A stretch of DNA of 64,000 nt, from IMG/VR virus record IMGVR_UViG_3300042508_000910; one strand, given 5' to 3'. Shown piece after piece: positions 16,701 to 31,653 of this stretch. Source of the stretch: a virus. The position numbers and the translations under genes are program-made. The stretch's first letter is position 1; each line of letters starts with the position of its first letter. The notes beneath the pieces are model-generated. The model saw nothing but the letters and a program-made list of their open reading frames with translations. It made no database searches and was not told the origin of the DNA.

Positions 16701-18814
16701 ATTTCTATAGAACAAATTTTGCTAATCCTGTTGCACCATTAACATATGGTCGTGGTAATCTTATTATCGCTACAAATCCTTATGATCGCACAGGACAATT
16801 TTATGCTAAAGGTGGATTAGTTAAAGGATATCAAACTGGTGGCAAAGTTGAATCATTTGTAAATAGATATTATCCTTACGCTGTTCAAGCCGCTCAAAGA
16901 TTAGGAACATCTCCAGAAGCTTTATTAGCTCAATTAGCTCTTGAGAGTGGATATGGAACTTCTAAATTATCAGCATCAAATAATCTAGGAGGATTAACTG
17001 CTGGTCGTGGATATAAGGGAAGCACAGTTGCTTTACCAGCAAATAGATTTGATAAAAATGTTGGAATATATGGTAATAGAACATATAGATCTTATGCTAG
17101 TACTCAAGAGTTTTTTGATGATTATGTTGCATTTTTATCCAAAGATAGGTACAAAGGAACATTAGGAATTACTGATCCTGGAGCTAGAGCATCAGCGTTA
17201 ATGAGAGCAGGATATGTTGCTGGAGATCCTAATTATGCTGCAAAAATACAAAGAATTGCTGGAAGATTGCAGCCTGTAATTTCACAGAATGTATTAGGTG
17301 GCTCCACAATGATTGCAGATTATAGAAATATACAGAATCAATTAGATCGCGCTGTTAAATATGCATCTAATGTGGGTCGTAGCAATTTAATGTCAACAGA
17401 AGTTGATCCAGAAGGAGCTTTTATAACTCGTGGCGCAAACATTTCTCAAAGAGCTCCACAGCAAATGGCAGGATTTTCATTTAGATTGCCTCAAATGTTT
17501 GGTACTTTAGATACACCAGTAAGAAATCCATTTGCAGAGGCTAATGCTCCATTTTTTAGACCTTCTGGCGCTCCATTAAAAGGTCCAGTTAGTACTAGAG
17601 GCTATAGTGGACCTTACGTTGGTCCTGGTCGTGGAGGATATCCATCCTATGAAGCTATTAAGGCTAGAGTTCAAAGTGGTCAAGGCGCTGGTGGAGCAGG
17701 TTCTTTGTTTCCAGATTATAATAAAGCTGCTTTAGATTATTGGTCAAATCAAATTTTTGGTGGTGCAGGATTAGCTGCTGGTCGTTTAGGTGGAACAACT
17801 CCAAGTCTTTATCAAGATGTAGGAAGTCTTTTAGACACAAGAGATCGTGGAAATTATGCAAGAGTAGCATCAAGATTTGCTCCATTCTATGGTGGCACAG
17901 CACAGAATAGATTCTTGTATCAACCATCTCCATCAAATTTTGGTCAAACAGGATTTAACAATTATTTAAAATATATTGGTTTAAATCCATTAACAACAAG
18001 TTTAGATTCATTAGCTTCTTATCGTGCCCCAATGACTCCTGGAATGTATAGTCCATATGCATTTGCAAGTAGTTATTTTGGTGGTTTTGGTGGATCAGGT
18101 TATCAATCAGGCTTCAGTTCCACAGGAAATGTATTTAGTAATTATTTCTCAACAGGTAGTAGATTAGGTATAACACCAAGTTGGCAAGCAAGAGCAACTG
18201 GTGGACCAATATATGGTGGCTCTTCATACAGAGACGATGTACCAGCTATGCTTATGGGTGGAGAATATGTTATTCGTAAAGATGTTGTTGATAGAATGGG
18301 CCAACCATTTTTTGATAGATTAAATCGTGGTCAAATGAATTTTGCAGAAGGTGGCCCAGTAGGTACTGGCTTACCTTCAATAGGAGTTGGCGGAGAAGGC
18401 AACGGACAACAAGATAATTCAAGAGTTCAATTTATTGAAGCTTTAACAAAACTTTTAAGATCGCTCGATCAACTAAACAAAACAGTAGAAGAGCAAACTC
18501 GTCAACAGAGAGATACAAAAGAATCTCAAGTTACCTCAACAGAAACAGAAACTAGTGGCGGTGGAGTAACTAATAATATTACTATTAGTGTCAATGTTGA
18601 TCAAAATGGTAAAACAACTGATACACAGAAACAAGAGAATCAAGACAGCAGCGGAAACGATATGAATGATCAAGAGAAGTTTAAGAAGACTCTTGAAAGA
18701 TCCAGAATGCTTTCTGAAATGTTAAGACAACAAGTATTAAAGGTTATTGTAGAAGAACAGCGTCCAGGTGGAGTATTATATCAAGGCTCTAAGGGACGCG
18801 ATATGGGTCGCTAA
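10715..18814 (+). CDS. Tape measure protein (TP901-type core) with GH73 glucosaminidase-like domain
   Basis: TMP core (ELARQGL..., DLAEALKRVGSSA..GVSFDELLAI...TARGGAVIGNSLKTIFTR); Gly-rich hydrophobic segments; DDVPAML..GEYV motifs; AQLALESGYG...NNLGG...GYVAGDPNY GH73 motifs at about 16850-17270. Confidence 0.92.
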   Translation: MAGNIGDLQFNLTANTSQLERDVAAALRRLESKGFNLGAGINARAFTQPLGRITGAANEFQKSLDASNARVIAFGASAGAIYNVQRAFTALIGSTIEVQKSLTDINVILNASSKTLGQFGDQLFEIARNSGQAFSTVATAAGELARQGLTIEQTLKRTSDALILARLSGLDAASSVEALTASINSFNQSALDSTQIVNKLASVDAAFAVSSSDLAEALKRVGSSAQDVGVSFDELLAIVASVNQTTARGGAVIGNSLKTIFTRIQRTDVLDQLESLGVAVRDLEGNTAPAIQVLTGLASKFDQLGSAQKAQVAELVGGVFQINVLKAALGDLSREYSVFGNALKVSTNASDEAIRRNEELNKTLSALLNRTVANLTKVGSEIGGLTFAPAIEKVLNGLNTALEGFDVKGDSIGSKIGKGIFEGIGSFVSGPGLALLIGVFLKIFGNLAKFTGDAARTILGLNKEAQAQAQIQERINNILAQNPQLVQNILNKQTTLLQVERDILTVIQAQSQARQQSAAVATNISRGLISKGVTVQGGAITARTKSQGFIPNFSANREIMGAISGGYMPGQVRSMNIPNYGRITYNTAEEVKRFPGLSQPGIMPPEGSEAGKNYKQKFKNKYGIDPYASKGFVPNFLSAAQIAARLRRNEMTQEEATRLGYKSTKQKQAERTTPSGIPVSSLSPLLALRSTGGKQGYTFKPKDGPQVNVTFPVIPFDQQSTGFKLSDLRTNLDKVIDKSISDFATSIYKSRELTPPIDLPSTIEQARKQADGLSGSIEGTIGGIFESAFRAAFGRSVKATKGGANFDVAKIPKDLGIFFPGAVTGIPGDFKSSDSDENRRSMALKVLSNQQPALYSLLTKRTASQGFIPNFSPLEKAFSTEKSLGGKPTLDYKEGLGLYVRDGKTQPNFAAVMRDHPEGMQRAIKNSKMMQGMYGSGGFIPNFQALDPMSIFFLAQSFLGGGGRDAGEAEQIKLEQKRYRDLLKERNLNLRVLKELENAAVRDEKAISYARQEYNTSLSNLAQYQKQARLEGPIFTGRGATQAQRAADFARRGGVGGAFGRFGARYGSGIALAAPLATGVASQFVGDDVTRVGRAQKAGVTGLGTVASFAGLGALVGGPIGAGVGATVGAGIAIYDVFKQLKDIMPEVAKEIEDANERFNNLSAGAQALNTSLETLRTVQERSDISAETRAKLVVKANEDFANGLNQIALASKPAADEILKLYQTLGDTPDLRERINLELAKSRDILDVSQSKGGFIKSSKDLEGLLDRFGPGFLTGTKGVSDLNAEELTRYRGLIGQQAQSLSKYFEGITGRELDVKGIEDLKRIYQESSGNLDKIKQGLLGLDIPASQAEAIIALLGEGKGDLSPVFDAMLEIEKRMQAIRDAQANMQTEIARGARPITNIAELQQAFQRPGGITSTALGRIDYRQLNEGLGIERNKAFTQDAISQFTTLSNEVGNTSKGIELMKGFVEEAAKAQKEYNDGVITLTQASEKLKYTFDKIMFSQNESRMFSDERAQAAMDLRRSALRQGNFAEGFAPAASFFDKFGDNAITTADKINQSFANLAENMQTGFEDAFGAFIDGTKSAEDAFRDFALNLAQQTIKEQFSIGLRSLLGNLTGGGGAATGIGGGGGIGGFLNNIFGGGGGGGGGLFGFASGGRVRKYSGGGYVDGGSGVRDDVPAMLTDGEYVLRKSAVNRYGLGMLNMLNGGGRVRGFATGGSVSALLQNAYDFYGVAGERLTTQYTPEAFATTVTGPEQLGNVPALTGRFNISDLLSSRAMVNEDNPMVALRNERFLGMQNYQQQVANFKTGYNEQMRQVEEARRRAQEEADRINSERMAAYNRQRTGTLIGGLLNVGLQAFGGLSSLGGGLGGLGGGGGGGLNIGGLFQDIAGRAIGFVQNAITGGGGMSGGTVGGISPEQQKYMSEQIRQGQRAGYQDPFRQQAQLFPQFGGAGGYGGGFGGSMFAQPSSSFGGFQYNVGLGTPAGFQTQFQSPLDFYRTNFANPVAPLTYGRGNLIIATNPYDRTGQFYAKGGLVKGYQTGGKVESFVNRYYPYAVQAAQRLGTSPEALLAQLALESGYGTSKLSASNNLGGLTAGRGYKGSTVALPANRFDKNVGIYGNRTYRSYASTQEFFDDYVAFLSKDRYKGTLGITDPGARASALMRAGYVAGDPNYAAKIQRIAGRLQPVISQNVLGGSTMIADYRNIQNQLDRAVKYASNVGRSNLMSTEVDPEGAFITRGANISQRAPQQMAGFSFRLPQMFGTLDTPVRNPFAEANAPFFRPSGAPLKGPVSTRGYSGPYVGPGRGGYPSYEAIKARVQSGQGAGGAGSLFPDYNKAALDYWSNQIFGGAGLAAGRLGGTTPSLYQDVGSLLDTRDRGNYARVASRFAPFYGGTAQNRFLYQPSPSNFGQTGFNNYLKYIGLNPLTTSLDSLASYRAPMTPGMYSPYAFASSYFGGFGGSGYQSGFSSTGNVFSNYFSTGSRLGITPSWQARATGGPIYGGSSYRDDVPAMLMGGEYVIRKDVVDRMGQPFFDRLNRGQMNFAEGGPVGTGLPSIGVGGEGNGQQDNSRVQFIEALTKLLRSLDQLNKTVEEQTRQQRDTKESQVTSTETETSGGGVTNNITISVNVDQNGKTTDTQKQENQDSSGNDMNDQEKFKKTLERSRMLSEMLRQQVLKVIVEEQRPGGVLYQGSKGRDMGR

Positions 18815-20040
18815 GTTATATATTGATTTAAATGTGACATTAAACCACTAACTCTAAGATTTAATTTATTTAGATCTATGCCTGATCCTACTGAATAAAA
18901 ACTAATACGAGCATTTGTATTTGCAGCATTACCAGCCGTAAGTGAATTTATTTTAAATATTGTATCATTAATTCCTAGTCTTGGATCAGCTGAGATAGAT
19001 GAACTAATTGTTCCAGTAAAACCTGTTCCTAATATAAAGCTTAAATTAGTGCTATTACTTCTAGAAACGCCATAGAAACCAGTTATCCTATCTATAGCTA
19101 TTGAAGTTCTAGAACCACCTCCATTATTATCAAAAAAGAGTCCATTATTAAAAAATCTATAATCTAAAGATATACCTGCTCCTGTTACTGGAAATGAGTT
19201 TGCTCCGAAAAAACTATGTTGACTTAGATTTCCAGATGGAGCTTCTGTAATAAATATAGAAATATGTTTACTATCTGCTGGATCTTGATTGCTAGCTCTA
19301 TTAGTATTTAACCATCTGGATGGACTAGATCCTCCACTACCTTTAATTCCACTTTTACGTAAGTATGAAGATGGAGCAAAAATATTTCCAGCTTCTCCAT
19401 CTCTGAATGGAGCGGGTCCTTTAAGAGGGACTAAAGCTCCAGTTATTGATCTTGCTGCGCCTAAAATACAACAACTTTTTATTGAACTCCAAATACCATC
19501 CGCTTTGCATCCTGTTACAAAAGATGTAATACCTGAGATAACGCTACTTTCTAAAGTTTGACCATCAGCGAGTTCTACAGCTGATACGTAATTTGTAATA
19601 GTATTATCTGGAGTTATTGTTAAATAACCAGTTCTATAATCAAAATTATAATTAATTCCAGAGCCACCGCTAGCTAAAATAGGATATGTGCCAGTTGGTG
19701 AATCAATTGTGGCTGTAGTATAACCAATGGGTAATGTTGTAATATTTCCACTATTTTGGCCATAAACGAATCCGCTAATATTGACAGTAAAGCTAGGTAA
19801 ACTATCTCCACTAATCATTGTTTGATTATTAGGTAAGACAACTAAAATCTTCTTATTAATATCAAAATTCTTAAAACCAGTATTATAATATACACCACTA
19901 AAACCCGACCAATTTATACCTACATTTCCAACACCAGTAATATATCCACTATATCCAATTATATATAATATATTATTATTGGTAGAGCTAAAATAGCCAG
20001 TAGTCATATTGTTTGTGTATGAGAAAAGATTAATCGCCAT
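18811..20040 (-). CDS. Virion protein: MBG domain plus lectin-like domain related to the 1-4 kb array
   Basis: N-terminal MBG-like repeat; NYVSAVELADG...ITSFVTGCKADGIWSSI resembles the array N-terminal block. Confidence 0.55.
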   Translation of the reverse strand: MAINLFSYTNNMTTGYFSSTNNNILYIIGYSGYITGVGNVGINWSGFSGVYYNTGFKNFDINKKILVVLPNNQTMISGDSLPSFTVNISGFVYGQNSGNITTLPIGYTTATIDSPTGTYPILASGGSGINYNFDYRTGYLTITPDNTITNYVSAVELADGQTLESSVISGITSFVTGCKADGIWSSIKSCCILGAARSITGALVPLKGPAPFRDGEAGNIFAPSSYLRKSGIKGSGGSSPSRWLNTNRASNQDPADSKHISIFITEAPSGNLSQHSFFGANSFPVTGAGISLDYRFFNNGLFFDNNGGGSRTSIAIDRITGFYGVSRSNSTNLSFILGTGFTGTISSSISADPRLGINDTIFKINSLTAGNAANTNARISFYSVGSGIDLNKLNLRVSGLMSHLNQYIT

Positions 20041-21060
20041 AAGTTATCGCTCCTGTTAAGTTAAAATAAATACCAGTATCTATTTCTAAGATAGTTAAAT
20101 ATCCAGTTTTATAATCAAAATTATAGTTAACGCCTGATCCTCCACTGCCTATTATATTATATATGCCTCCACTAGAATTTATATTTGCGACTGTATAACC
20201 TGTTGGTAATGTTACAAGATTTCCGCTATTCTGATTGTAAACAAATCCACTAATATTAACAGTAAATGGAGGATTATTATCGCCACTAATTCTTAATTTA
20301 TTATCTGGAGTTACTGTTAAAGTTTTTGAATTTATAGTTAAAATAGCTGTTCCTGTTCCATATCTAACAAAATTACTACTATAACCTGTCCAATTAATAT
20401 TAACATTGCCTACGCCAGTTATGTATCCAATAGAACCGTTAATTACTAATATGTTTGTATTTGTAGAAGCAAAATTAATACTTCCATCTATGTTCGTGTC
20501 TATATATGATAAAAGATTAATCGCCATAAGTGATAACTCCTGTAAATGTTAGATAAAATGCAGGATCAAATCCAGTCGTTTCATTTATGGTTAAGAATCC
20601 TGTTTTATAATTAAATTTATAATTAATTCCAGAACCACCACTAGCTAAAATAGGATATATACCAGAAGGAGAATTTGTATCTGCAATTGTGTAGCCAGTA
20701 GGTAGTGATATAAGATCTCCACTATTCTGGTTGTAAACAAATCCGCTAATGTTAACACTTAAAGATGGAATATTTTGTCCAGTAATTATTGTTTTATTAT
20801 CGGGAATTACTGTTAATGTTTTCTTTTCGATCGTGATAGTTTTTGCTAATCCAGTATATCCACTAGTAGTAGTTATTGAAATCCCAGACCAATTAATATT
20901 AGTTGTGCCAAGTCCTGTGATTATTCCAGTATTATTATTCATTACTATAACTGATGAATTTGTGGAAGTGTAAGTAAAATTATTTAAATTCTGTGAGCTA
21001 CTTGGAGATAGAATTATATTTGAATCTCCATATATATTAGTCTGTATATATGGACTAAAG
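19610..21060 (-). repeat. Three diverged tandem copies of a ~150-aa Ig/MBG module with an identical 21-bp gene junction
   Basis: AAAAGATTAATCGCCATAAGT at 20024-20044 and 20511-20531 (period 487 bp); ITYGD*/MAINL overlap repeated. Confidence 0.85.
20030..20527 (-). CDS. Single MBG (Ig-like) domain protein
   Basis: LTVTPDNK.RISGD.NP.FTV.ISGFV...GIYNI..SGGSG.NYNFDYKTGYLTI matches the MBG pattern. Confidence 0.7.
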   Translation of the reverse strand: MAINLLSYIDTNIDGSINFASTNTNILVINGSIGYITGVGNVNINWTGYSSNFVRYGTGTAILTINSKTLTVTPDNKLRISGDNNPPFTVNISGFVYNQNSGNLVTLPTGYTVANINSSGGIYNIIGSGGSGVNYNFDYKTGYLTILEIDTGIYFNLTGAITYGD

Positions 21061-24000
21061 TCAGCATAAGTATTTTCTCTAAATATTAAAACTTGTTCTA
21101 TAGAGTCTCCACTTTGATCTATAATGAGCACTTTAAATCCAAAAGTTTTACTTTCATTAATCCATTTTTTATAATCTTGTAGAAAGTCTTGATATTGATT
21201 CTCTCCACCTTGAGAATATATAAAGTCTGGAATAGATAGTATAGTTGGACTAAGCTTCCTTATAGAAGAAAACTCTTGAGAAGAGATAACATCAGAGCTT
21301 GTCCATGATATATTATTAGTATCATTTATCTCTTTTGCATATATTATAACCTTGCGAAGTGTTACGTTATGCTCTGGACAGAATGCTAAAACTAGATTTA
21401 AAGTTTCATTTTGATTTACTGGCCTTGTATATGAAAATTCATATGGAGTAGAGTTATAGTCTACGGCTTTATAATTCCAGATTAAAGATCCTAAAACTTT
21501 ATTTTGACACTCATATATTTTACCATAAGGATAATTAGATGAAGTTTGTTTAGCGTCATATTTACTTAATATATAGAATTGTTTATTTTGAGCTCTGTCC
21601 TCTACAATACTAGCTAGATCTGCACAGCATCCTTTTAAGCAATCCGTTGAATTATCAATAATGACATAAGGACAAGATTTAACTAAACTAAATCTATTCT
21701 GAATTGGATCTGTTGCCAATAAATAAAAATCACCAAAGAATGGAACATCTTGAGCATCTTGCACGATTTTAAATCTAGTTGGATATATTAAGAAAGATAT
21801 CATCTTTTTAGAATCTATAATATTTTTTGCGTCTATTTTTGTTCCAAATAGAATAGGATCATCATTAATACCGCAAGAAGAAACAAATTTGGCGACAAAA
21901 TAATGATAATTGACACCATTAATTTTCTTTATTCCTTTTTCTAGTATAGAGTCTGTACCAGATATACCCTGAATAATGAAATCTTCTGCATCAGGTATAT
22001 CTAATATAAATTCTATAATAGAATAAGCATCATCTTTTTGTATGCCAACGCTTAGAACCTCTACAGAATATATATTTTTTGCAGAAAAATACTTTAGATC
22101 ATCTCTAATAGCTTTAAAATCAACAACCTCTGGTGATTCTTGATCTCCTATATTTCCTGGATCATAAACTCCAAGATAACTATTAGTGCCATTTATTCCG
22201 CTTGATGGAACATCTTCTGGATCTAATCCTCCTGCGACATTAGAAGAATTATATTTATAACTATCTAAGCATCTATATGTAGTCTTATATTTGATTTCAT
22301 TAGGGAAAGAGTTATCTATTCTAGCTTGTGCAAGAGGAAAATAATTTAAGAATTCTGGACCAGATGCGACTCCATCCTTCTCAAAATCAAGCATTCTTGC
22401 ACCATATCCATTAAAATTTTCATTTCTGTAATCTTCGTTTGGCCAAGATATATAAGGATAACTTTCTGGAGTAAAGAAATAAACTAGACCTTGATAACTT
22501 GCGGCTATTGTAGAAGTATAGTTAGAATTATCTTTAATGAACTTATTTAAGTATATATATTTATCAATTAAATCTGTATTTTGTATATAGTTTAGCATCG
22601 CTTGGAGACTATTATTAGTAAGAGCTAAATAATTATTTAAAGCTGAAGCCTGTAAAGAGTTTAGATAATATAATTTGACTGAAAAGATATTATCATTAAC
22701 TAGTGGGCTTTCTGGGCTAAGATATGTTGTAAGTCTATAATTTGATTCATATTGACCATCTAATATTTCAATTTTATAATTTTTATTATTTAGGAATAAG
22801 GACGGATCTTCTTTTAGATTTCTTATAAATATAAATTCATCAAAAAACTCTTGTCTATCTTGATCGTTTATGTTCTCATTATATTTGACAGGTAAAATAA
22901 TTATTGAATCTATGCCAACATCATTAGGATATATATCTTTTATATCAAAAATAATTTTATTATTATCTTCCCTTCTATAATTTTTAAATGTTTTTAGAAC
23001 ATCTGATCTGGATATATCATTATGATTAACTTGTAGTATTTTATATCCTTTTGAATTTGAATATCTATCGTTAAAATATGTAGATGTTGATCCAGAGGTT
23101 GTTGTATCTGTTGCAATGTTTCCACCTGCAGAAGAGAATCCTTCATCGTCAACTGCTTCTATTGTAACGTAATAATTATTATAATGACCAGGTTGAGCTA
23201 TCTTAACGTATAAATTTTCTCTATCACCTGTAGTTCCAAATATTCCAGTATCATTTACAGATGGATTATAAACCATAGCGTTTTGCTCTGTTGTGCCTCT
23301 AACAAAAGATTCATTCTTGCTTAAGAATCCTTGGTAATTATGAATATAATCAAAAATAAAATATCTATTAAAATCACTAAAAAGATTTCCTTGTATCACA
23401 TCTCCAGTATTTAATGGAAGAATAGGAGCATTAATCTCAGTGGCAAATGCACTTTTCTCTGGTGCAACAGCCAAAGATTCTAAAGCATAGATATCATTTA
23501 AATTAGATTTTAGTAAAGAGTTGTCTATTAAAATTCCGCTCGAATAATTTCCAGTCGTATTGAATGGAAGAACGCGATTATACATATTAACAGTTTTATT
23601 TTTAAAATACCTAGAAAAATCATATTGTGTAAAATTAGGATTATATGCTTGGACTTCTGGAGTAGTTGGTGAAGAGAAAGATATTTGCCATCCTAAATAA
23701 CAATAATCTGAAAAAGTCGTAATTTTATCTTGATTTAGAGTACTTATCATTCCACCAGATATATTTCCATCTTCATATGTATAAACATCTGTGAAGTAGT
23801 TTAGGTTTTTAAAACTAACTTCTTTGATAAATTTTTGATTTGGCATATATCCAGAGAATAATGTTCCTGTAGACTCCATGCCAAAAATATTTTTAGAGAA
23901 AACTGTTACATAATTTAATCCTGTATTTTCAGGTATATAGAAAAAGTATTTTTCATCTGTAGAGTATGGTATTTCTTGTACTAGATAATTATTATTATTA

Positions 24001-24164
24001 CTATTTGGTTTTGTGTTATAGTAAGTATCTGTTACGTATATTCTATAAGATTCTATATTTTCAATATTTTCTATTGGTTTAAAATAGAATTTAAATCCTT
24101 TACTATTTTGTGTTATGTTAATAACTTCAACTGTTACATTAGGGATTCCTGTTGGACCATTCAT
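20517..24164 (-). CDS. Tail-tip protein: N-terminal FN3-like domain, C-terminal MBG domain (probable detached distal part of gpJ)
   Basis: Starts GPTGIPNVTV...SYRIY...YVTVFSKN.FG.ES (FN3-like) 1 nt after the gpJ stop. Confidence 0.5.
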   Translation of the reverse strand: MNGPTGIPNVTVEVINITQNSKGFKFYFKPIENIENIESYRIYVTDTYYNTKPNSNNNNYLVQEIPYSTDEKYFFYIPENTGLNYVTVFSKNIFGMESTGTLFSGYMPNQKFIKEVSFKNLNYFTDVYTYEDGNISGGMISTLNQDKITTFSDYCYLGWQISFSSPTTPEVQAYNPNFTQYDFSRYFKNKTVNMYNRVLPFNTTGNYSSGILIDNSLLKSNLNDIYALESLAVAPEKSAFATEINAPILPLNTGDVIQGNLFSDFNRYFIFDYIHNYQGFLSKNESFVRGTTEQNAMVYNPSVNDTGIFGTTGDRENLYVKIAQPGHYNNYYVTIEAVDDEGFSSAGGNIATDTTTSGSTSTYFNDRYSNSKGYKILQVNHNDISRSDVLKTFKNYRREDNNKIIFDIKDIYPNDVGIDSIIILPVKYNENINDQDRQEFFDEFIFIRNLKEDPSLFLNNKNYKIEILDGQYESNYRLTTYLSPESPLVNDNIFSVKLYYLNSLQASALNNYLALTNNSLQAMLNYIQNTDLIDKYIYLNKFIKDNSNYTSTIAASYQGLVYFFTPESYPYISWPNEDYRNENFNGYGARMLDFEKDGVASGPEFLNYFPLAQARIDNSFPNEIKYKTTYRCLDSYKYNSSNVAGGLDPEDVPSSGINGTNSYLGVYDPGNIGDQESPEVVDFKAIRDDLKYFSAKNIYSVEVLSVGIQKDDAYSIIEFILDIPDAEDFIIQGISGTDSILEKGIKKINGVNYHYFVAKFVSSCGINDDPILFGTKIDAKNIIDSKKMISFLIYPTRFKIVQDAQDVPFFGDFYLLATDPIQNRFSLVKSCPYVIIDNSTDCLKGCCADLASIVEDRAQNKQFYILSKYDAKQTSSNYPYGKIYECQNKVLGSLIWNYKAVDYNSTPYEFSYTRPVNQNETLNLVLAFCPEHNVTLRKVIIYAKEINDTNNISWTSSDVISSQEFSSIRKLSPTILSIPDFIYSQGGENQYQDFLQDYKKWINESKTFGFKVLIIDQSGDSIEQVLIFRENTYADFSPYIQTNIYGDSNIILSPSSSQNLNNFTYTSTNSSVIVMNNNTGIITGLGTTNINWSGISITTTSGYTGLAKTITIEKKTLTVIPDNKTIITGQNIPSLSVNISGFVYNQNSGDLISLPTGYTIADTNSPSGIYPILASGGSGINYKFNYKTGFLTINETTGFDPAFYLTFTGVITYGD

Positions 24165-24165
24165 A

Positions 24166-27100
24166 TTATATATCGTCTCCTAATGCATATTTTGTCTCAT
24201 CATATTGAAGCGCGGTAACTTTGTATCTATTCTCTTCTTGCTCTTCTATATCTAAGATTCTAAATTTTTGAGTTTTATCTAAATAAGGCTCTAGATAAGC
24301 TCCAGGATATAATCCTGTATTACTAAATCCAGATACGCTTGGACTTTTACTAAAATCATAAAAATTAGGATCAACTTCTATTGTCCAAACTGTATTTTGT
24401 AATAAAGTATGCTCAACATTATCTAATTCAGATGTTCCAAAATTAATCCTTGTAAAGCCATTAAAATTCGTCCCAGTCTCTAGAGATATTGCATCAGCAA
24501 AAATAGATTGAGTACCATTTTCTAATGTTGTATTATTATATTCTATAGTTTGAACTTGTTTTCTTCTTATTAAGGATGTACTAATTCCAGAAGATATTGC
24601 ATTAATATTTCCATCTTTATATGGAATAATATTATTTCCAGTGTAAGTCATCGCTTCATTTCCAGCTTCTGTACCGATCTCGATATTACCTGCTGGAGTT
24701 AATATATTAAATTTGCAACCTTGAATAGCTGGTAAAAATCCAGAGATATCTTCGTATTTTACGTCAAGTATTGCTGAGTTCTTGTCTAAACTAAATGTTC
24801 TCCCTCCTAATACCTTATTTTGTCTATTCTGATCTTGTACTAATATTATATCTCCTGGTTTTAAATACAAAGCTGGTAGACTTGTTTCAAAATTTACCAA
24901 CTCTGATTCAAAATTTTCTGATAATAATGTCCATTTACCGAGTCTTTCTGCTTGACCTTCGCTTGTGCATCCAAAAGCGCTAACTTCTATTTCTCTAATA
25001 CCAAATTTAATTAAGCCATCTCTATTTTCTACATATTTAACCGCTGGTTTATAAAAATTTTCTTTATCATTATATCTAACTAATGCAACATTTCTTCTTA
25101 CTCTTTTACTTGTATTACTATATGTAAATTCTCCATCTTTGACGTTAGAATTATTAAATAAATATATAGACTCTTTTGGTCTATCTTGAGAAGTCATAAT
25201 TAATCCCGCACTATAATAGACTATAGCTCTAAAGACACTCGCCATATCATTCATTACTTTATAAGCATCTTCTCTTGTACTAATTAAAACATTACATGTG
25301 AATCTTGGTTCAAGACCACCTCTACCATCGCTAACAAGCTCATCACAATATTTACTAATTTCATAAAGTGTCCATTTATCTGTAAATTGTGGATCAATAT
25401 ATTTTCCAAGTCCATATCTTTTATTCGTAATTATATCATAAAAGCACCAAGCTGGGTTATCTGTCCAAGCTAGTTTAAATGTACCATCCCAAATAGGAGG
25501 ATCATATGTTTTACTAAATGGATTATAATTAGTTGGAACTTTTACCTTTAGTAATCTTGTATCATAGGCTCTTTGTGGAATACTTTGGAAAAATCTTGCA
25601 TCAAAAGTTGTCATTACTCCTGCTGTATGAGGAAGAACAAGAAAATCATTATATATTTCTGTAATAGAGTCTATAGCGGATTTTAATAATATATTTGCAT
25701 CAACACTCTCTGTATAAGTTGGTTCTATTTCTATTTCCCATCCAATTGTATTGTCATTTGTCTCTTTGTCTAATCCTGTCCACTCAAATGTTTCAATATA
25801 TGGTCCAGCATTTAACTTACCAGTCATTATTAATGTAGAATATTCTTCTGGAAGATTTAAATCAGGTTTAATAGGAGTGATAACGAGTCCACCTGAATCT
25901 ACCCCACGATCTACTCTTTTTAGATATAATTTAAATGTCATACTCTGTCTATCAATTCTACCACCTACGCTATTCTCAGCTGCTTGATCTGATGTGTCCC
26001 AAATAGTTAAATCTACAATTTGTTTAAATAAACTCAAAGCTTTTATATGCAATTTTAATCCATAAAGATCTTTAGTAAGAATAGTTATTGATTTTTTATA
26101 AGTTTTCTCTGAACCATCTTGGAATTTTCTTTTTCCAAATAGTTTTGAACCAACTGTTTTGGTACTAGTTAATCTCTTAGGTAATTTAATTTGTTCTGCT
26201 ATTACTGTACCATTCTCATCTCTAGCCTTTAAATAATTAACATAAATACCATTTTGTATTTGTCTAGAATAATACTCTTCTTCAAGACTAATATTTTTCA
26301 ATTCATCTATATTTGTATGTCTTGGTGCAGAATCTCCATTATCAAATTTTAATCTTATAAACTCAAAATTTAAACTTCCATTATTTGGATATGTATTGTC
26401 TGCTAATGGAATTTCATTCCAATATACAGATCTAATAAGAGAGGAATTCCCTGGATATCTTTTAATAGTAACGCCATTTTTATATCCAATATCTCCTTTT
26501 TGAAAACCAGGGTTTGGTATAATTTCATAATCAACAATACCTTCAATCGGTCCTTCGCCTAAAACATCAAGAATTGATATATTTGTTAAAGATGTTATTC
26601 CTATATCTTTTGATTCAAGAAGGCTATTTCTATATTGATAACCATAATTAATTATGGTTGAAGTTGCAGCAGCTTGACTAACAAGAGTAGTACAATTTGC
26701 TGGGATAGAAGATGAAGTTAAAGTAACGTTCTCTGAATAATTATATGCACGTTTTGTTTGCCATCCTCTTGAAGTATAAATTCGACACCCACCTTTTCTG
26801 CTGCATTCTACAGTTCCTATCTTTATTCCAGGTCCACGGCCATTATGAACAAATATATTTTCAGCGATATAAGTATGATATTTGTCTACTTCTAAATTGT
26901 AAACAACATCCATGCCAATATATTTTTTACTTTTAATCTGTAGCTTTTTCTTATCGAAAGATGTTAAATTCTCACCCACTTCAATATCGTTTAGGAATTT
27001 AAATTCTCCATTTACTAGGAATTGATGACTTAATGTAGATTTGATAATTGTACCATCTTCTAATTCTATTTGATATATAGGTTGAGGTTCCTTATTATGA

Positions 27101-29592
27101 TCTATAAAATCTATAACTTTTGAAATATGAATATCCTCATTTTCATCAAAAGCTAAAACTTCATCATCTACTTTAATTTTTTCAATTTCGATGTCGCCTT
27201 TTGGAGTTTTTACTTTTGTTCCTTTTGCAAAACATGTTCCTTTGAAGACGCAAGAATAAACGTCTCCAGCTCTTGGGGCAAGAGTTACTCCAATATACAT
27301 TGTAAATCTTGTAAAGATATAATTAAACGCACAACTATCTGTAAATCTTACATAATAAGTATATGTTCCATTTGCATTTGGAATTCCATTTGGGTAAGCT
27401 AAAAGCTTGCTTTTAGGTAATCTTTGGTTTGCAAATTCAGAAGTTGTGTCAAAACTAGGGCCAGAATCAAATACCACTTGATGCTCTACTGTTGATGGAC
27501 TCATAGATATAATTGGAACATTTTGAGCTGGATCAGCACTTATACCAGTTTTAGTATTACCGCCAGACGTTACATCTATATTCTGTGAATAAGGTTTTGA
27601 AACTGGTCCATTTGTACTATCTGGTGGATAACAAGCGTTACCTATACCATCTACAAGCCCAGCAGATGCAAAATCAACATCGTATGTGCCATTAATGTCT
27701 ATTGTACCAATTATATTTCTAAATTCACGAGCAGGATTACGTATATTTTCTACTGATATCCAAAGACACGTTTCTGCATCTTTACTATTACCAGGAATAA
27801 AAGTTAAAAAATTAGCATTCGTTGAGTCATAGTTGATTTGCAATCCTTCTAATTGAATCCCGTCAGGATATCCATCCTTACGGATTTTGTCAAATTCATT
27901 CTTGTTAATTTTCTTATATTTAATAAAATCGCCTAAATTTGGAGAAAATATAGATGTTCGACTACTAATTAAAGATTTTATAATAAATTTATTATTTTTT
28001 ATAATATCAAAGTTTCCTTGAGGTAAATTAATTGTAGAAGGAAAAGAAGCTCCTTCATTTGGATTTCTTTCAATATAATCTGTAAAATTAAAAGTTAAAG
28101 TTACTTTTGATGTTGTTCCTCTATCATTAGAAGCGCTTGCATATGCGTAAAAAATTCCAGCATGTTTAACTGTTCCTGATATTACATTTTTTGTAGCGTT
28201 ATAAGAAAGTCCATCAGGTAAAGAAGATATTGCTATGATCCTTTGTTTTCCATTTAATCCGCGTATTGAATTGCTGAATTTATCTCCAACTGAACCACCA
28301 TAAGTAAATGCAGAAATAGTTGGTAATGGGCCAGTAGTTGCTTGTTTCCCAACTATAGCACTTAGATTAAATTCTTTCTGGTTTCCAGAATCAAAATCTG
28401 GGCCACGAATAGTAAATAATAGATTTTGTATTTCTATCTGATCTTTAATACTATTAGAAACTGTACCAGATATAGTTTTTGTTTGATGATTAAAAGATAA
28501 ATTTAAATATTGAAGTAAATCTTTTGTTTTTGGTGGTACGTAAACACTAAATTGACTTGAAGATATTAAATTCGTTGTTATAGTATAACTAATAGACTGC
28601 CCTTTAAATAAACTTATTGTTGGCGCACTAGTAACATACATTGGATCTTGAATATCACTACTTTGACATTTTATAGTAATACTTCTTGTTGATTTAAATG
28701 TTTCTGTTTCATAAACTGGTTTGTTTCTTGTACCTACATTGACTACTTTGCTACCACGTACATGAGTAGTAATATAACCTGTATCATACCCAACGATATT
28801 AATCTTATTTTTTATGAAATTTTTATTTTTTGTGATATTATATGTATATAATTGTGCAAATCCACTAGTAGTTACCGATCTTGTTGCATAAGTAAATCTA
28901 AATAAATCTCCACTAACATAATTAACTGTTCCATAAGTTTTTAATCCAAGATTACTTCCGCTTGAAAAAATAACATAAATTCTGTCTCCTACAATTAAAC
29001 CATGGTTACTATAAGTCACGCTAACTTCATTACCATTTTGAGAATAACTAACATCATATACATCAGAAAATCTAATAGGATCATTTGAATTCGTTTCTGC
29101 AATAGAACTGAAACCATTAAATGTAAAATAAGATGGTAATGTATCTGTTTGAAATTGTGTTATAAATGGTTCATTTTTTATCGCCGATAAAACCGTTGCA
29201 TTTGATACGGTTTTATTTATAAAATTTTGATAAGCCGCAGTTATTGATGCTGGAGTTATACCAACTCCTGGGCTTCCATACATAATTAACCCATCTGTTA
29301 AACTCCAAACGAACCAAAATCCTCGACTATTATCAATTCCATTAATTTTTATCGCATTATTTTGAGACACTGGCCAAGACCTTAATGAACCAGGAGAAAA
29401 TATTGGATTATAAGCATCAAGCATGTCATCAACATTTGCGAGCATATCTGTGGTAGGCTCATTATTAGCATCATATGGTTGTCCAATATCGTTATAATTA
29501 TTAAAATTATCAAAAGATACTCCATTTTCTCCGCGATATGCAAGTCCTTCAATATATTTATTTGGATCGCAATCTTTACATTTTTTAGCCAT
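24166..29592 (-). CDS. Tip attachment / host specificity protein J (lambda gpJ-like) with N-terminal Ig extension and Hint domain
   Basis: GEGPIEGI, KVKVPTNYNP...WDGTFKLAWTDNPAWCFYD...RYGLG, YCDELVSDG.GG.EPRFTCN, GCTSEGQA.RLGKW.L, LKPGDII.VQD. Confidence 0.92.
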   Translation of the reverse strand: MAKKCKDCDPNKYIEGLAYRGENGVSFDNFNNYNDIGQPYDANNEPTTDMLANVDDMLDAYNPIFSPGSLRSWPVSQNNAIKINGIDNSRGFWFVWSLTDGLIMYGSPGVGITPASITAAYQNFINKTVSNATVLSAIKNEPFITQFQTDTLPSYFTFNGFSSIAETNSNDPIRFSDVYDVSYSQNGNEVSVTYSNHGLIVGDRIYVIFSSGSNLGLKTYGTVNYVSGDLFRFTYATRSVTTSGFAQLYTYNITKNKNFIKNKINIVGYDTGYITTHVRGSKVVNVGTRNKPVYETETFKSTRSITIKCQSSDIQDPMYVTSAPTISLFKGQSISYTITTNLISSSQFSVYVPPKTKDLLQYLNLSFNHQTKTISGTVSNSIKDQIEIQNLLFTIRGPDFDSGNQKEFNLSAIVGKQATTGPLPTISAFTYGGSVGDKFSNSIRGLNGKQRIIAISSLPDGLSYNATKNVISGTVKHAGIFYAYASASNDRGTTSKVTLTFNFTDYIERNPNEGASFPSTINLPQGNFDIIKNNKFIIKSLISSRTSIFSPNLGDFIKYKKINKNEFDKIRKDGYPDGIQLEGLQINYDSTNANFLTFIPGNSKDAETCLWISVENIRNPAREFRNIIGTIDINGTYDVDFASAGLVDGIGNACYPPDSTNGPVSKPYSQNIDVTSGGNTKTGISADPAQNVPIISMSPSTVEHQVVFDSGPSFDTTSEFANQRLPKSKLLAYPNGIPNANGTYTYYVRFTDSCAFNYIFTRFTMYIGVTLAPRAGDVYSCVFKGTCFAKGTKVKTPKGDIEIEKIKVDDEVLAFDENEDIHISKVIDFIDHNKEPQPIYQIELEDGTIIKSTLSHQFLVNGEFKFLNDIEVGENLTSFDKKKLQIKSKKYIGMDVVYNLEVDKYHTYIAENIFVHNGRGPGIKIGTVECSRKGGCRIYTSRGWQTKRAYNYSENVTLTSSSIPANCTTLVSQAAATSTIINYGYQYRNSLLESKDIGITSLTNISILDVLGEGPIEGIVDYEIIPNPGFQKGDIGYKNGVTIKRYPGNSSLIRSVYWNEIPLADNTYPNNGSLNFEFIRLKFDNGDSAPRHTNIDELKNISLEEEYYSRQIQNGIYVNYLKARDENGTVIAEQIKLPKRLTSTKTVGSKLFGKRKFQDGSEKTYKKSITILTKDLYGLKLHIKALSLFKQIVDLTIWDTSDQAAENSVGGRIDRQSMTFKLYLKRVDRGVDSGGLVITPIKPDLNLPEEYSTLIMTGKLNAGPYIETFEWTGLDKETNDNTIGWEIEIEPTYTESVDANILLKSAIDSITEIYNDFLVLPHTAGVMTTFDARFFQSIPQRAYDTRLLKVKVPTNYNPFSKTYDPPIWDGTFKLAWTDNPAWCFYDIITNKRYGLGKYIDPQFTDKWTLYEISKYCDELVSDGRGGLEPRFTCNVLISTREDAYKVMNDMASVFRAIVYYSAGLIMTSQDRPKESIYLFNNSNVKDGEFTYSNTSKRVRRNVALVRYNDKENFYKPAVKYVENRDGLIKFGIREIEVSAFGCTSEGQAERLGKWTLLSENFESELVNFETSLPALYLKPGDIILVQDQNRQNKVLGGRTFSLDKNSAILDVKYEDISGFLPAIQGCKFNILTPAGNIEIGTEAGNEAMTYTGNNIIPYKDGNINAISSGISTSLIRRKQVQTIEYNNTTLENGTQSIFADAISLETGTNFNGFTRINFGTSELDNVEHTLLQNTVWTIEVDPNFYDFSKSPSVSGFSNTGLYPGAYLEPYLDKTQKFRILDIEEQEENRYKVTALQYDETKYALGDDI
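26842..27234 (-). other. Hint (intein-like, A-type BIL-like) domain in gpJ, 131 aa
   Basis: CFAKGTKV (Cys1) ... STLSHQF (TxxH) ... VYNLEV..YHTYIA..IFVHN followed by Gly; no endonuclease. Confidence 0.92.
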
Positions 29593-29593
29593 A

Positions 29594-30907
29594 TTAATTT
29601 CCTGCGTTTAATGAAGAATCTGACAAGGAGTTTCCTTGTACATCTTGAATATCTATGGCCGTACCATAATGAGTAAAGTAATAACTTTTAGTTGGATAGT
29701 TTTGTTGTCCTGCATCCTCTGGAGGTTTACCTGCACTATCATATTTATTAGCTCTAGACTGTATACGATATAATTGATCATAAGAACTAAATACTTGATG
29801 ACTTCCTACAATTAATCTTCCATAACCTATTGGAATTGGACCACCTTCTCCTACCGTATTGACTGGTCCATTAAAAGTATAAGAAGGTTCACCTCCACCA
29901 CTATCAGGCGAAGCTTCAAAATCTGCAGAAGGATTAGCGATTTGTTGTGGACTTACCATTGGTGGTGGTTTCATTAACAACATTGAGACTCCTAGAGAGA
30001 TTAAACCAACTATAGCTGGAAGTAAAGCTCCTAATAGACCAAGAGATCCTCCACCAGTTATAGGTGATAATAAAATACCTAAAAATATAGCAAAGATACC
30101 TTTAACTCCACCACCCATTCCTCCCTTTCCTCCACCAGCTTTACCACCTCCTCCATTATGTACTCTTATTTCATCTGCAATATAGGTATGATATTCTTTA
30201 ACATGAAAATTATAAGTTTTTTCGAAACCTATTTCTTCTATATTTTCTATTGGAAGAACATCTCCGCTTTCATGAATTAATACATCTCCAATTTGAAATT
30301 TTTCAAGAGGCGCAAATCTATTATATTCATTTAAAAACCAATGGTTTGGAGTAGCTTTTATAATTTTTCCACCCCATAAAGTAACTTTTAGAATCTTATT
30401 AGATTCATGTGAAAAAGTTTTTTCTATTATATCTTCGTGAATTTTCCCATCTTTATCAAAAGATAAAATCTTATCTCCTTCTTTTAGATCTTCAATATTT
30501 GATAAACCATTAGGCGTAGATATTCTTGTTCCAGATGGAAAACATCCTCCACCACCTCCACCACCTCCGCCTCCACCAGCACCTTCTAAAATTGGAACAA
30601 CATCGATTGTTTTCAATTCTTTTCCGAAATTCATAACAATTTCTGATTTATTCAATATTTCAAAATGCTCTCTTTTTAAATCTTTTAATTCTTGAGGTAG
30701 TTTTTCTGGTTTTGGAACCCAAACTGGACGATTATTTATTAAAATTTCGTATTTAGCATTCTTCTCTGCTTGCTCAATAAGTAGTTTAGTAAATTTTTGA
30801 GTATTAGCTTCTATTGCTCTAAAAGCCTCGGCAACGCTTGAAACTTCTAGGTTCCATTCTGAACCTAATTCTTCACCCAAATAACCATGTAGATTAACCT
30901 TAACCAT
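29594..30907 (-). CDS. Tail assembly protein I (lambda gpI-like, ubiquitin-like fold) with Hint domain
   Basis: VKVNLHGYLGEELG....L.VSSVAEAFRAI; IDVVPILEGAG; C-terminal SYTFNGPVNT..EG.PIPIGYGRLIVGS. Confidence 0.9.
   Translation of the reverse strand: MVKVNLHGYLGEELGSEWNLEVSSVAEAFRAIEANTQKFTKLLIEQAEKNAKYEILINNRPVWVPKPEKLPQELKDLKREHFEILNKSEIVMNFGKELKTIDVVPILEGAGGGGGGGGGGGCFPSGTRISTPNGLSNIEDLKEGDKILSFDKDGKIHEDIIEKTFSHESNKILKVTLWGGKIIKATPNHWFLNEYNRFAPLEKFQIGDVLIHESGDVLPIENIEEIGFEKTYNFHVKEYHTYIADEIRVHNGGGGKAGGGKGGMGGGVKGIFAIFLGILLSPITGGGSLGLLGALLPAIVGLISLGVSMLLMKPPPMVSPQQIANPSADFEASPDSGGGEPSYTFNGPVNTVGEGGPIPIGYGRLIVGSHQVFSSYDQLYRIQSRANKYDSAGKPPEDAGQQNYPTKSYYFTHYGTAIDIQDVQGNSLSDSSLNAGN
30155..30544 (-). 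other. Hint (intein-like, A-type BIL-like) domain in gpI, 130 aa, flanked by poly-Gly
   Basis: Gly11-CFPSGTRI ... ATPNHWF ... TYNFHV..YHTYIA..IRVHN-GGGG. Confidence 0.92.
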
Positions 30908-31653
30908 TATAGTTTGCTCCTATGCCTTAAAACATAACTTGTATGTTTCTTATAAAAGCTATCATATAAATTTACACAAGAAAAAGAATTATAAGGTTGA
31001 TGTAGGATTAAATTATTACCTAGAAAAACAGCCGCATGAGTTGGATATTCTTCTGAAACACTGGGAAAAAGCATCATTAATCCATCTGATTTTTTCAAAG
31101 GAGTATCCTTATCTAATTTAACAAAACCTTGTTCTATAAAATTATTTTCATATAAACTTTTAATATCTTTTAATGATCTTGGATAAGAATTTATCTTTGG
31201 AAAATTAATCTTAACATTCTCTTCTTTTAAAGCGTACTCTTGCATTAATGTAAAACAATCTGATCTACCTAACATAAATGGTCTTCCAATATAGGGGTTC
31301 TTCTCAGAATTTGGACTATAAAATTTAAATTCATCATATTTAACATTATAAAGTATATAATGTATATTATATTTGTTACTATTCTCTTTATCCATTTCGC
31401 TAAATTCTAAATTATCATTAGAATGAGAATGATAGCATGCTGTAATTTTCCCTAATAAAGTGCATGATAAATATTCTTGAGGAGAGATTAAAAAATTATT
31501 GTTTTTTTGATTTGCTGTATTTTTACATGGATAAATATCAAATTTATATGTATTTTGGTCAAAATAGATAAAACCACAAACTTCTTGTGGATATTTTTTA
31601 ATACTTTCATTCTTAATCTTTTCTTTAAGTTGAAGGTTAAACTCTAGGTTCAT
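30907..31653 (-). CDS. Tail assembly protein K (JAB/MPN metalloprotease plus NlpC/P60)
   Basis: PQEVCG...YHSH....FSEMD JAB motif; GRPF..G.SDCF.L...HAAVFLG...ILH NlpC/P60 motif. Confidence 0.92.
   Translation of the reverse strand: MNLEFNLQLKEKIKNESIKKYPQEVCGFIYFDQNTYKFDIYPCKNTANQKNNNFLISPQEYLSCTLLGKITACYHSHSNDNLEFSEMDKENSNKYNIHYILYNVKYDEFKFYSPNSEKNPYIGRPFMLGRSDCFTLMQEYALKEENVKINFPKINSYPRSLKDIKSLYENNFIEQGFVKLDKDTPLKKSDGLMMLFPSVSEEYPTHAAVFLGNNLILHQPYNSFSCVNLYDSFYKKHTSYVLRHRSKL

Follow-up and report, generated by a model that had tools for sequence, protein, structure and literature searches.

In a 64,000-nt stretch of the IMG/VR virus record IMGVR_UViG_3300042508_000910 (hereafter the window), the tail protein gpI of a lambda-like tail-tip module is interrupted by a 130-aa Hint domain, which lies between an N-terminal ubiquitin-like (Ubl) domain and the C-terminal plug-forming part of the protein. 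The insert is probably a type-A bacterial intein-like (BIL) Hint that processes gpI in cis, at the site where the JAB domain of the neighboring gpK was predicted to cut, and we regard it and a paralogous Hint in gpJ as cis-autoprocessing modules at the borders of tail-tip proteins. Most likely, both Hints simply cut themselves out during tail maturation. A sequence-only reading of this locus had proposed a dedicated E1-free Ubl ligation system instead, an interpretation that is weighed below.

The gpI sequence reads ...DVVPILEGA, eleven glycines (G111-G121, encoded by GGT, GGA, and GGC codons), C122 to RVH250-N251, and then G252GGGK, with GGGGKAGGGKGG... after the Hint. The anatomy proposed earlier, namely LEGA and Gly11 followed by a 130-aa Hint with Cys122, TxxH, and His-Asn and then by GGGGK, was found in full. 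Pfam PT-HINT matched residues 129-251 (E-value (E) 1.4e-13, above the cut-off), block B read T186-P-N-H189, and the AlphaFold2 (AF2) model had the horseshoe beta fold of Hint domains, with a predicted local distance difference test score (pLDDT) of 85-95 over residues 121-250. By both sequence and structure the best match was the type-A BIL of C. thermocellum (2LWY; E 4.5e-17, 34% identity, TMt 0.87, rmsd 1.6), in agreement with the proposed assignment to A-type BILs lacking a +1 nucleophile. The second-best structural match was BIL2 of Tetrahymena BUBL (6Y75), and further matches were the mini-inteins Mtu RecA, Ssp DnaB, and gp41-1. Since Cys1, the Thr and His of block B, and the terminal His-Asn are kept in 38 distinct gpI Hints of relatives, the motif is no chance pattern; the same positions are invariant in 13 gpJ Hints.

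The residue following the terminal Asn (+1) was Gly at all 28 gpI sites (the window and 27 IMG/VR loci) and in all gpI-type cluster representatives, and the sequence after the terminal His-Asn in these loci and representatives was GGGGK or a one-residue variant (GGAGK, GGSGK). Neither Cys, Ser, nor Thr occurred at +1 in any of the 41 Hints from the window and IMG/VR, which rules out a canonical class-1 intein. A selfish intein with a homing endonuclease is also ruled out: at 130 aa the insert is too short for an endonuclease and has no extra domain, as the sequence-only reading had noted, and the GC and GC3 contents of the gpI and gpJ Hints match those of the phage. Gly usually preceded Cys1, but Ser did so in L007/L008 and L009; other gpI Hints had AQG, SQG, or PQG as the three residues ahead of Cys1. 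From its fold, Cys1 and TxxH, terminal His-Asn, and lack of Cys, Ser, or Thr at +1, the gpI insert is assigned as a type-A BIL-like Hint without a +1 nucleophile.

Pfam Lambda_tail_I gave no match to the window gpI, and the homology to lambda gpI came from profiles built in this study. The N-terminal family profile aligned to lambda gpI residues 14-55 and 86-97 (...IHIVPRVAGA) and the C-terminal profile to residues 100-203, each with an E of about 1e-7. Because both half-profiles match lambda gpI, the window gpI is a true homolog of the lambda protein (TAPI), with a beta-grasp domain ending in Gly, a Gly-rich linker, the TAPI-C part, and a gene located between K and J. The AF2 model of residues 1-121, built with 58 aligned relatives, had a pLDDT of 88.6, and every top PDB match found by Foldseek was a beta-grasp protein of the MoaD, SAMP, CysO, Urm1, or ubiquitin type; as the E-values were weak (best 7.8e-3), the fold was called from the uniform MoaD/SAMP/ubiquitin list. 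Family profile, model, and PDB matches agree on a TAPI-type, MoaD/ThiS-like beta-grasp, as expected from the earlier reading and from the published prediction for the N-terminal domain of gpI (PMC1779556). Gly109 was invariant in 58 gpI sequences. The C-terminal stretch after the Hint is hydrophobic first and ends with the conserved part. The full-length AF2 model was poor outside the Hint (mean pLDDT 57.8) and was left out of the junction geometry.

In the profile alignment, the Hint is inserted at the position between VAGA and KSGG of lambda gpI. JAB cleavage of gpI was predicted at the conserved C-terminal Gly of the Ubl domain (Iyer, Burroughs and Aravind 2006, PMC1779556). The C-terminal part of lambda gpI forms a trimeric plug in the lumen of the tip, and in the virion the ordered part of gpI starts at residue 101 or 135, no Ubl domain is visible, and gpK is missing (PMC10721106, PMC11101478); one of these reports places the first ordered residue at 101 (PMC11101478). 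As judged by alignment, the insertion site is thus the point at which gpK was predicted to cut, and approximately the point at which ordered gpI begins in the lambda virion.

In type-A BILs, a thioester is formed at the N-junction, the Asn cyclizes and thereby severs the C-junction, and the alpha-amine set free in this way may go on to attack the thioester; those characterized mainly cleave, with some cis-splicing (PMC4031507). In gpI, Cys122 would attack the carbonyl of Gly121 by an N-S acyl shift to give a Ubl-Gly(n) thioester, a step expected by homology and also proposed in the sequence-only reading, and cyclization of Asn251 would release H2N-GGGGK-TAPI-C. Hydrolysis of the thioester would then yield free Ubl-Gly-COOH, the Hint, and the plug, which are the products of JAB cleavage. 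Alternatively, aminolysis by the freed alpha-amine of Gly252 would yield a cis-spliced, ordinary gpI like that of the Hint-less relatives. The paralogous Hint would act likewise at the N-terminal border of canonical gpJ. Each chemical step and the ratio of the products is what we infer from an anatomy, homology, distribution, and selection that are themselves observed. Both outcomes would mirror natural states, the cleaved form corresponding to the JAB product predicted in 2006 (PMC1779556) and the spliced form to the Hint-less sisters. The cleaved form would also fit the lambda virion, with its ordered plug, unseen Ubl domain, and absent gpK (PMC10721106, PMC11101478).

Relatives and the second Hint in gpJ

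The second Hint, which was absent from the earlier note on gpI, is 38% identical to the gpI Hint and paralogous to it. It is located after the conserved motif GDVYSCxYxxT, at the end of an N-terminal extension (JN), and before the region homologous to the N-terminus of lambda J (JC), in which the motif ...SILDVLGEGPIEG corresponds to lambda J residues 24-36. The +1 residue across 13 distinct gpJ Hints was Gly, Arg, Met, or Lys.

Scanning 80 IMG/VR loci with our own profiles revealed three states of the gpJ site. JN, Hint, and JC were joined in the window and in 15 of the 80 loci (among them L001-4, 7-9, 14-17, 21, 27, and 28), with Gly, Arg, or Met at +1. JN and JC were fused directly in L005, 6, 10, 12, 13, 22, 23, and 24-26. 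Two genes split at the same point were found in L011 (7899-7990) and L019 (13338-13460); the second gene starts with MGY... and, in L011, is preceded by an AAGG-type ribosome-binding site. The gpJ site tells the same story as gpI, its two parts being encoded apart in some relatives and fused directly in others. Because the two outcomes expected for gpI and the states of the gpJ site both reproduce natural states, the Hints are read as cis-autoprocessing modules at protein borders.

A gpJ open reading frame (ORF) starting with a leader of 10-33 aa and then one or two Hints was observed in L029, L033-35, P0083, P0128, and P0148, the last two of which were confirmed as gpJ by Pfam. A natural pair with and without the insert was also found, with ...KVLRGAGGGKSC / ...YPKVLRGAGGGKSC in L059-61 and ...YPKILRGAG-Hint-KGGGGGSC in L029. 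At the gpJ N-termini of L033 (3574-4100), L034, and L035 the motif is doubled around the Hint (...SIIGSKGG-Hint-GGYAARYPIVGSKGGG), suggestive of either a cassette that came in together with its own flank or a duplicated target.

The gpI Hint was present in loci L001-L027 and, at the protein level, in about 28 clusters (53-99% identity). Close Hint-less relatives of gpI (P0029-P0034, 66-74% identical in the flanks, and L028) share the Gly/Lys linker, e.g. EGAGGGGGGGGGKGGGGKSGGGKGG; the Gly run is thus a native feature of the linker, and Gly11 as a trait linked to the Hint is ruled out. Across the wider family the linker is hypervariable, ranging from none to more than 100 residues and rich in Gly, Pro, or Ser, and this border between Ubl domain and plug is a hot spot for insertions. 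We also observed Pro-rich or Ser/Gly-rich tracts of 60-130 residues as the linker of the gpI homologs P0043, P0048, P0099, and L030-L032.

In a tree of the gpI flanks, Hint presence takes two to four gains or losses, and the Hint-less P0029/30 and L028/P0032/34 nest within Hint-bearing sequences. The tree of the Hints themselves had a separate clade for each insertion site, gpJ included, and broadly followed the host genes. Two lineages, however, occupy the gpI site; besides the main one there is P0025-28, grouped with the Hint of a fibre-like protein. The dN/dS values at similar divergence were 0.16 for the Hint, 0.19 for the Ubl domain, and 0.18 for TAPI-C, which are approximate with dS near saturation. 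By these comparisons, the Hint is under purifying selection and mostly vertically inherited. The sequence-only reading had named sporadic occurrence together with Cys, Ser, or Thr at +1 as the mark of a selfish mini-intein; the Hint is indeed sporadic among homologs, whereas such a +1 residue was never seen.

Hints in both gpI and gpJ were found in about nine lineages, in gpI only in about ten, and in gpJ only in four, indicating independent occurrence. Obligate pairing or cross-ligation of the two Hints is weakened by these counts, as well as by the gpJ +1 residue, which is Arg, Met, or Lys as often as Gly.

A profile search of 1.84 billion proteins gave 23,403 proteins at E <= 1e-10, the top matches being tandem arrays of the form ...GGG-(C-Hint-HN)-KGG-(C-Hint).... 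In 320 complete Hint domains of this wider family Cys1 was invariant, the -1 residue was Gly in 50%, and the +1 residue was Lys in 65% and Cys, Ser, or Thr in 14%. The tandem-Hint proteins (P0113-P0151) form a very large family with 2-11 Hints separated only by KGG, KG, or KGGGG. Many of them have a signal-like N-terminus ending in ARGGGG and a Gly-rich C-terminus, and P0114 and P0127 also bear Tim44-like domains.

gpK and the tail-tip module

The ORFs and Pfam matches indicated a lambda-like tail-tip module on the minus strand of the window in the order M-L-K-I-J (Table 1). gpK carries E24 and H75-S-H77-x7-S85-x2-D88 together with C133, H206, and H218, that is, the JAMM motif and the NlpC/P60 Cys-His-His of lambda TAPK, and all of these residues are kept in 49-65 relatives. 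The claim that gpK keeps its JAB residues was thereby borne out (E24, H75, H77, S85, and D88, with Prok-JAB above the cut-off). Cutting of a lambda-type gpI by gpK at the end of the Ubl domain has long been predicted and, to our knowledge, never shown. If the Hint had replaced the protease, loss of the JAB domain in Hint-bearing phages would be predicted; no such loss was seen, the motif being intact in 28 of the 28 Hint-bearing loci.

Co-folding of gpK with the Ubl domain gave a score of 0.56 against 0.01 for the best control, with runs agreeing in at least 83% of contacts and a partner pLDDT of at least 77. In a benchmark, 58 of 80 solved complexes reached that mark, as did 2 of 110 mismatched pairs; of those that did so with a score of 0.60 or less, however, only 7 were among the 80 solved complexes, and both mismatches fell into this range. 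JAB-ubiquitin complexes have already been solved, and the pass of the gpK-Ubl model may reflect mere likeness to them. We also noted that the gpJ leader ...YPK(I/V)LRGAG (L029, 3133-3210; L059-L061) resembles the C-terminal strand and tail of the Ubl domain (...VPILEGAG, gpI residues 100-110) and ubiquitin (...LRLRGG). Recognition of both the gpJ-leader and Ubl-tail sites by the JAB peptidase of gpK would be a speculative extension.

Table 1 Features of the tail-tip region in the window.
Feature	Position (nt)	Strand	Basis or remark
Tape-measure protein, 2699 aa	10715-18814	+	PhageMin_Tail
Three successive ORFs downstream of gpJ (1215, 165, and 409 aa)	18811-24164	-	MBG_2 (YGX-type) domain in each
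gpJ ORF, 1808 aa	24166-29592	-	
Canonical gpJ (JC), residues 918-1808, and stop codon	24166-26841	-	Phage-tail_3, E 3.9e-17
Second Hint, in gpJ, residues 787-917 (Cys787, terminal H-N917, +1 Gly)	26842-27234	-	PT-HINT, E 9.2e-9
gpJ N-terminal extension JN, residues 1-786, ending ...GDVYSCVFKGT	27235-29592	-	Separate gene in L011 and L019
gpI ORF, 437 aa (P0001)	29594-30907	-	Lambda gpI (TAPI) homolog
TAPI-C, hydrophobic helices and plug-forming part, residues 269-437, and stop codon	29594-30103	-	Family profile
C-side linker GGGGKAGGGKGGMGGGV, residues 252-268 (+1 Gly252, Lys at +5)	30104-30154	-	Sequence
Type-A BIL-like Hint of gpI, residues 122-251 (Cys122, T186xxH189, H250-N251)	30155-30544	-	PT-HINT, AF2, 2LWY
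Ubl tail end and N-side linker, L107-E-G-A110 and Gly11 (111-121), N-extein junction	30545-30589	-	Sequence
gpI Ubl domain (MoaD/ThiS-type beta-grasp), residues 1-106	30590-30907	-	Family profile, AF2, PDB matches
gpK (TAPK) homolog	30907-31653	-	Prok-JAB E 2.5e-7 and NLPC_P60 E 5.8e-6, both above cut-off
gpK NlpC/P60 domain, about residues 123-242	30928-31287	-	
gpK JAB domain, about residues 18-106	31336-31602	-	
gpL-like tail-tip hub protein, 771 aa	31650-33965	-	Pfam Phage_tail_L, E 3.8e-27; kept in relatives
gpM-like distal tail protein, 186 aa	33971-34531	-	Pfam Phage_min_tail, E 1.4e-18

The gpL-like protein is longer than that of lambda (232 aa); its Phage_tail_L match is restricted to the N-terminal part, and an insertion in it had a weak match to an H-type lectin. 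The tape-measure gene, with a glucosaminidase domain inside, lies on the strand opposite to the module and converges on it. The three ORFs after gpJ are probably fibre or adhesin components. A search of GenBank phages with the DNA of the window gave no match, and a search by protein gave only distant pieces of Hint or TAPI-C, so that the window phage has no cultured relative.

Probable cis-processing and its rivals

If gpI is processed in cis, cleavage is tentatively favored, and clean cis-splicing by a neutral or selfish passenger is somewhat unlikely. Several points weigh against this interpretation as a whole. Cleavage, cis-splicing, and trans-aminolysis are not separable by sequence, and since the JAB motif is intact in every Hint-bearing locus, the Hint has not replaced the protease. 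Selection for a good amine acceptor could be read into the Gly residues at +1 to +4 and the Lys at +5, all of them invariant, although the Hint-less relatives share this pattern. The second-best structural match, BUBL BIL2, does conjugate a Ubl (PMC8616854). Furthermore, the trees were built from short alignments and contain unresolved forks, and dS is near saturation.

The main rival is E1-free ligation, the idea of the sequence-only reading. In the form weighed here, the Hint would make a Ubl-Gly thioester and hand it over in trans, the receiving amine being a Lys or the N-terminus of another protein (gpJ, gpL, the tape measure, or a host protein), with the JAB domain of gpK as an isopeptidase or maturase reversing or editing the mark; it would thus resemble the BIL2 of Tetrahymena BUBL, a 'ubiquitin-dispensing platform'. 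Its chemistry is sound and has a real precedent in BUBL, where BIL2 attaches ubl4 to Lys residues and needs no ATP (PMC8616854). The Ubl domain of gpI runs out in glycines and is joined straight to Cys1 of a catalytically complete type-A BIL, the intact JAB gene adjoins it in all of the Hint-bearing loci, and the gpK-Ubl co-fold, read with its benchmark, lends this idea weak support. We nevertheless consider a dedicated system of this kind improbable. In gpJ, the same Hint family is found with no Ubl ahead of it, both at the border between JN and JC and behind short leaders, and the distribution of the gpI Hint is independent of that of the gpJ Hint. Any Ubl ligation must also be dispensable, because Hint-less sister phages exist with the same linker, gpK, and gpJ. 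In addition, the -1 residue varies, with Ser in L007/L008 and L009 and AQG, SQG, or PQG elsewhere, and the C-extein consists of a linker and a hydrophobic plug with no acceptor Ubl. In characterized type-A BILs, which mainly cleave, either water or the alpha-amine released within the same active site serves as acceptor (PMC4031507).

An inert Hint, one that no longer processes and serves as a spacer or decoration separating Ubl domain from plug in mature gpI, is very improbable. Mini-Hints without a +1 nucleophile can splice poorly, and the M. magnetotacticum BIL spliced only after its +1 residue had been changed to Cys (PMC4031507), a precedent that gives this account no direct support. Against it stand catalytic positions that are invariant in the 38 gpI and 13 gpJ Hints down to about 53% overall identity, and the low dN/dS of the domain. 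A retained 15-kDa domain would also be hard to fit, as the lambda plug sits in the narrow lumen of the tip right after the linker (PMC10721106, PMC11101478). Taken together, processing in cis remains the probable course for gpI.

Comparison with known systems

An ordinary type-A BIL domain and the gpI/gpK pair are each already known. The module resembles that of lambda in the M-L-K-I-J order, the MoaD-like Ubl domain with a conserved end Gly, the Gly-rich linker, TAPI-C, and a gpK with JAB and NlpC/P60 domains. It differs from lambda in the 130-aa Hint at the equivalent of VAGA/KSGG, in its much larger gpL and gpJ, and in the 786-aa extension of gpJ joined via the second Hint. Class-1 mini-inteins share the fold, Cys1, block B, and terminal His-Asn with the phage Hints, whereas the latter have no +1 nucleophile, are located in a variable linker rather than in the conserved active site of an enzyme, and bear no trace of a homing endonuclease.

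Closest are the type-A BILs (C. thermocellum BIL4, 2LWY; Amitai 2003, Dassa 2004, and Aranko 2013, as relayed in PMC4031507), which have the same Hint fold, Cys1, TxxH, and His-Asn, likewise no endonuclease and no Cys, Ser, or Thr at +1, and a hypervariable location. The host of those BILs is a variable secreted bacterial protein, whereas here it is a conserved structural protein of a phage, and the phage Hints, whose activity is predicted from sequence, recur at tail-tip borders, namely between Ubl domain and plug in gpI and at the N-terminal border of gpJ. No description of Hint or BIL domains in phage tail proteins was found in the literature searched, which was that of an open library. Three aspects are new relative to that literature: conserved tail-tip proteins as the host context, repeated insertion at protein borders (the predicted JAB site among them), and a natural Ubl-Gly/Cys-BIL junction in a virus.

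These findings extend the range of type-A BILs to conserved phage structural proteins. A module predicted to cleave itself sits exactly at the predicted cut point of gpK, and the gpJ borders, which are separate genes or fusions in relatives, carry its paralog. The locus thus offers a natural experiment bearing on two questions, namely whether the plug of the tail tip has to be released from the Ubl domain and how fused tail-tip proteins mature without a protease, and the compact natural Ubl-Gly/Cys-Hint fusion offers a direct test object for thioester chemistry.

The ciliate precedent invoked by the sequence-only reading does exist (PMC8616854). In Tetrahymena BUBL BIL2 (6Y75/6TMM; Chiarini 2021 and Dassa 2004 Trends Genet, as relayed in PMC8616854), as in gpI (Ubl 1-106, LEGA-G11, C122), a Ubl domain lies directly upstream of Cys1 and there is no canonical +1 nucleophile. 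A C-terminal Ubl thioester formed without E1 or ATP, as in BUBL, is predicted for gpI by analogy. The two differ in that the gpI Hint is only about 22% identical to BIL2, and in that BUBL has an acceptor Ubl as C-extein within a poly-Ubl/BIL array, whereas gpI has a single Hint followed by a linker and the plug. The phage Hint family is, moreover, not restricted to Ubl domains, being found also between JN and JC of gpJ, after short leaders, and in KGG tandem arrays. The phage setting, as opposed to that of BUBL, is a virus with a JAB gene next door; if transfer in trans were true, it would represent E1-free, ATP-independent Ubl conjugation in a virus, the first viral or prokaryotic counterpart of BUBL.

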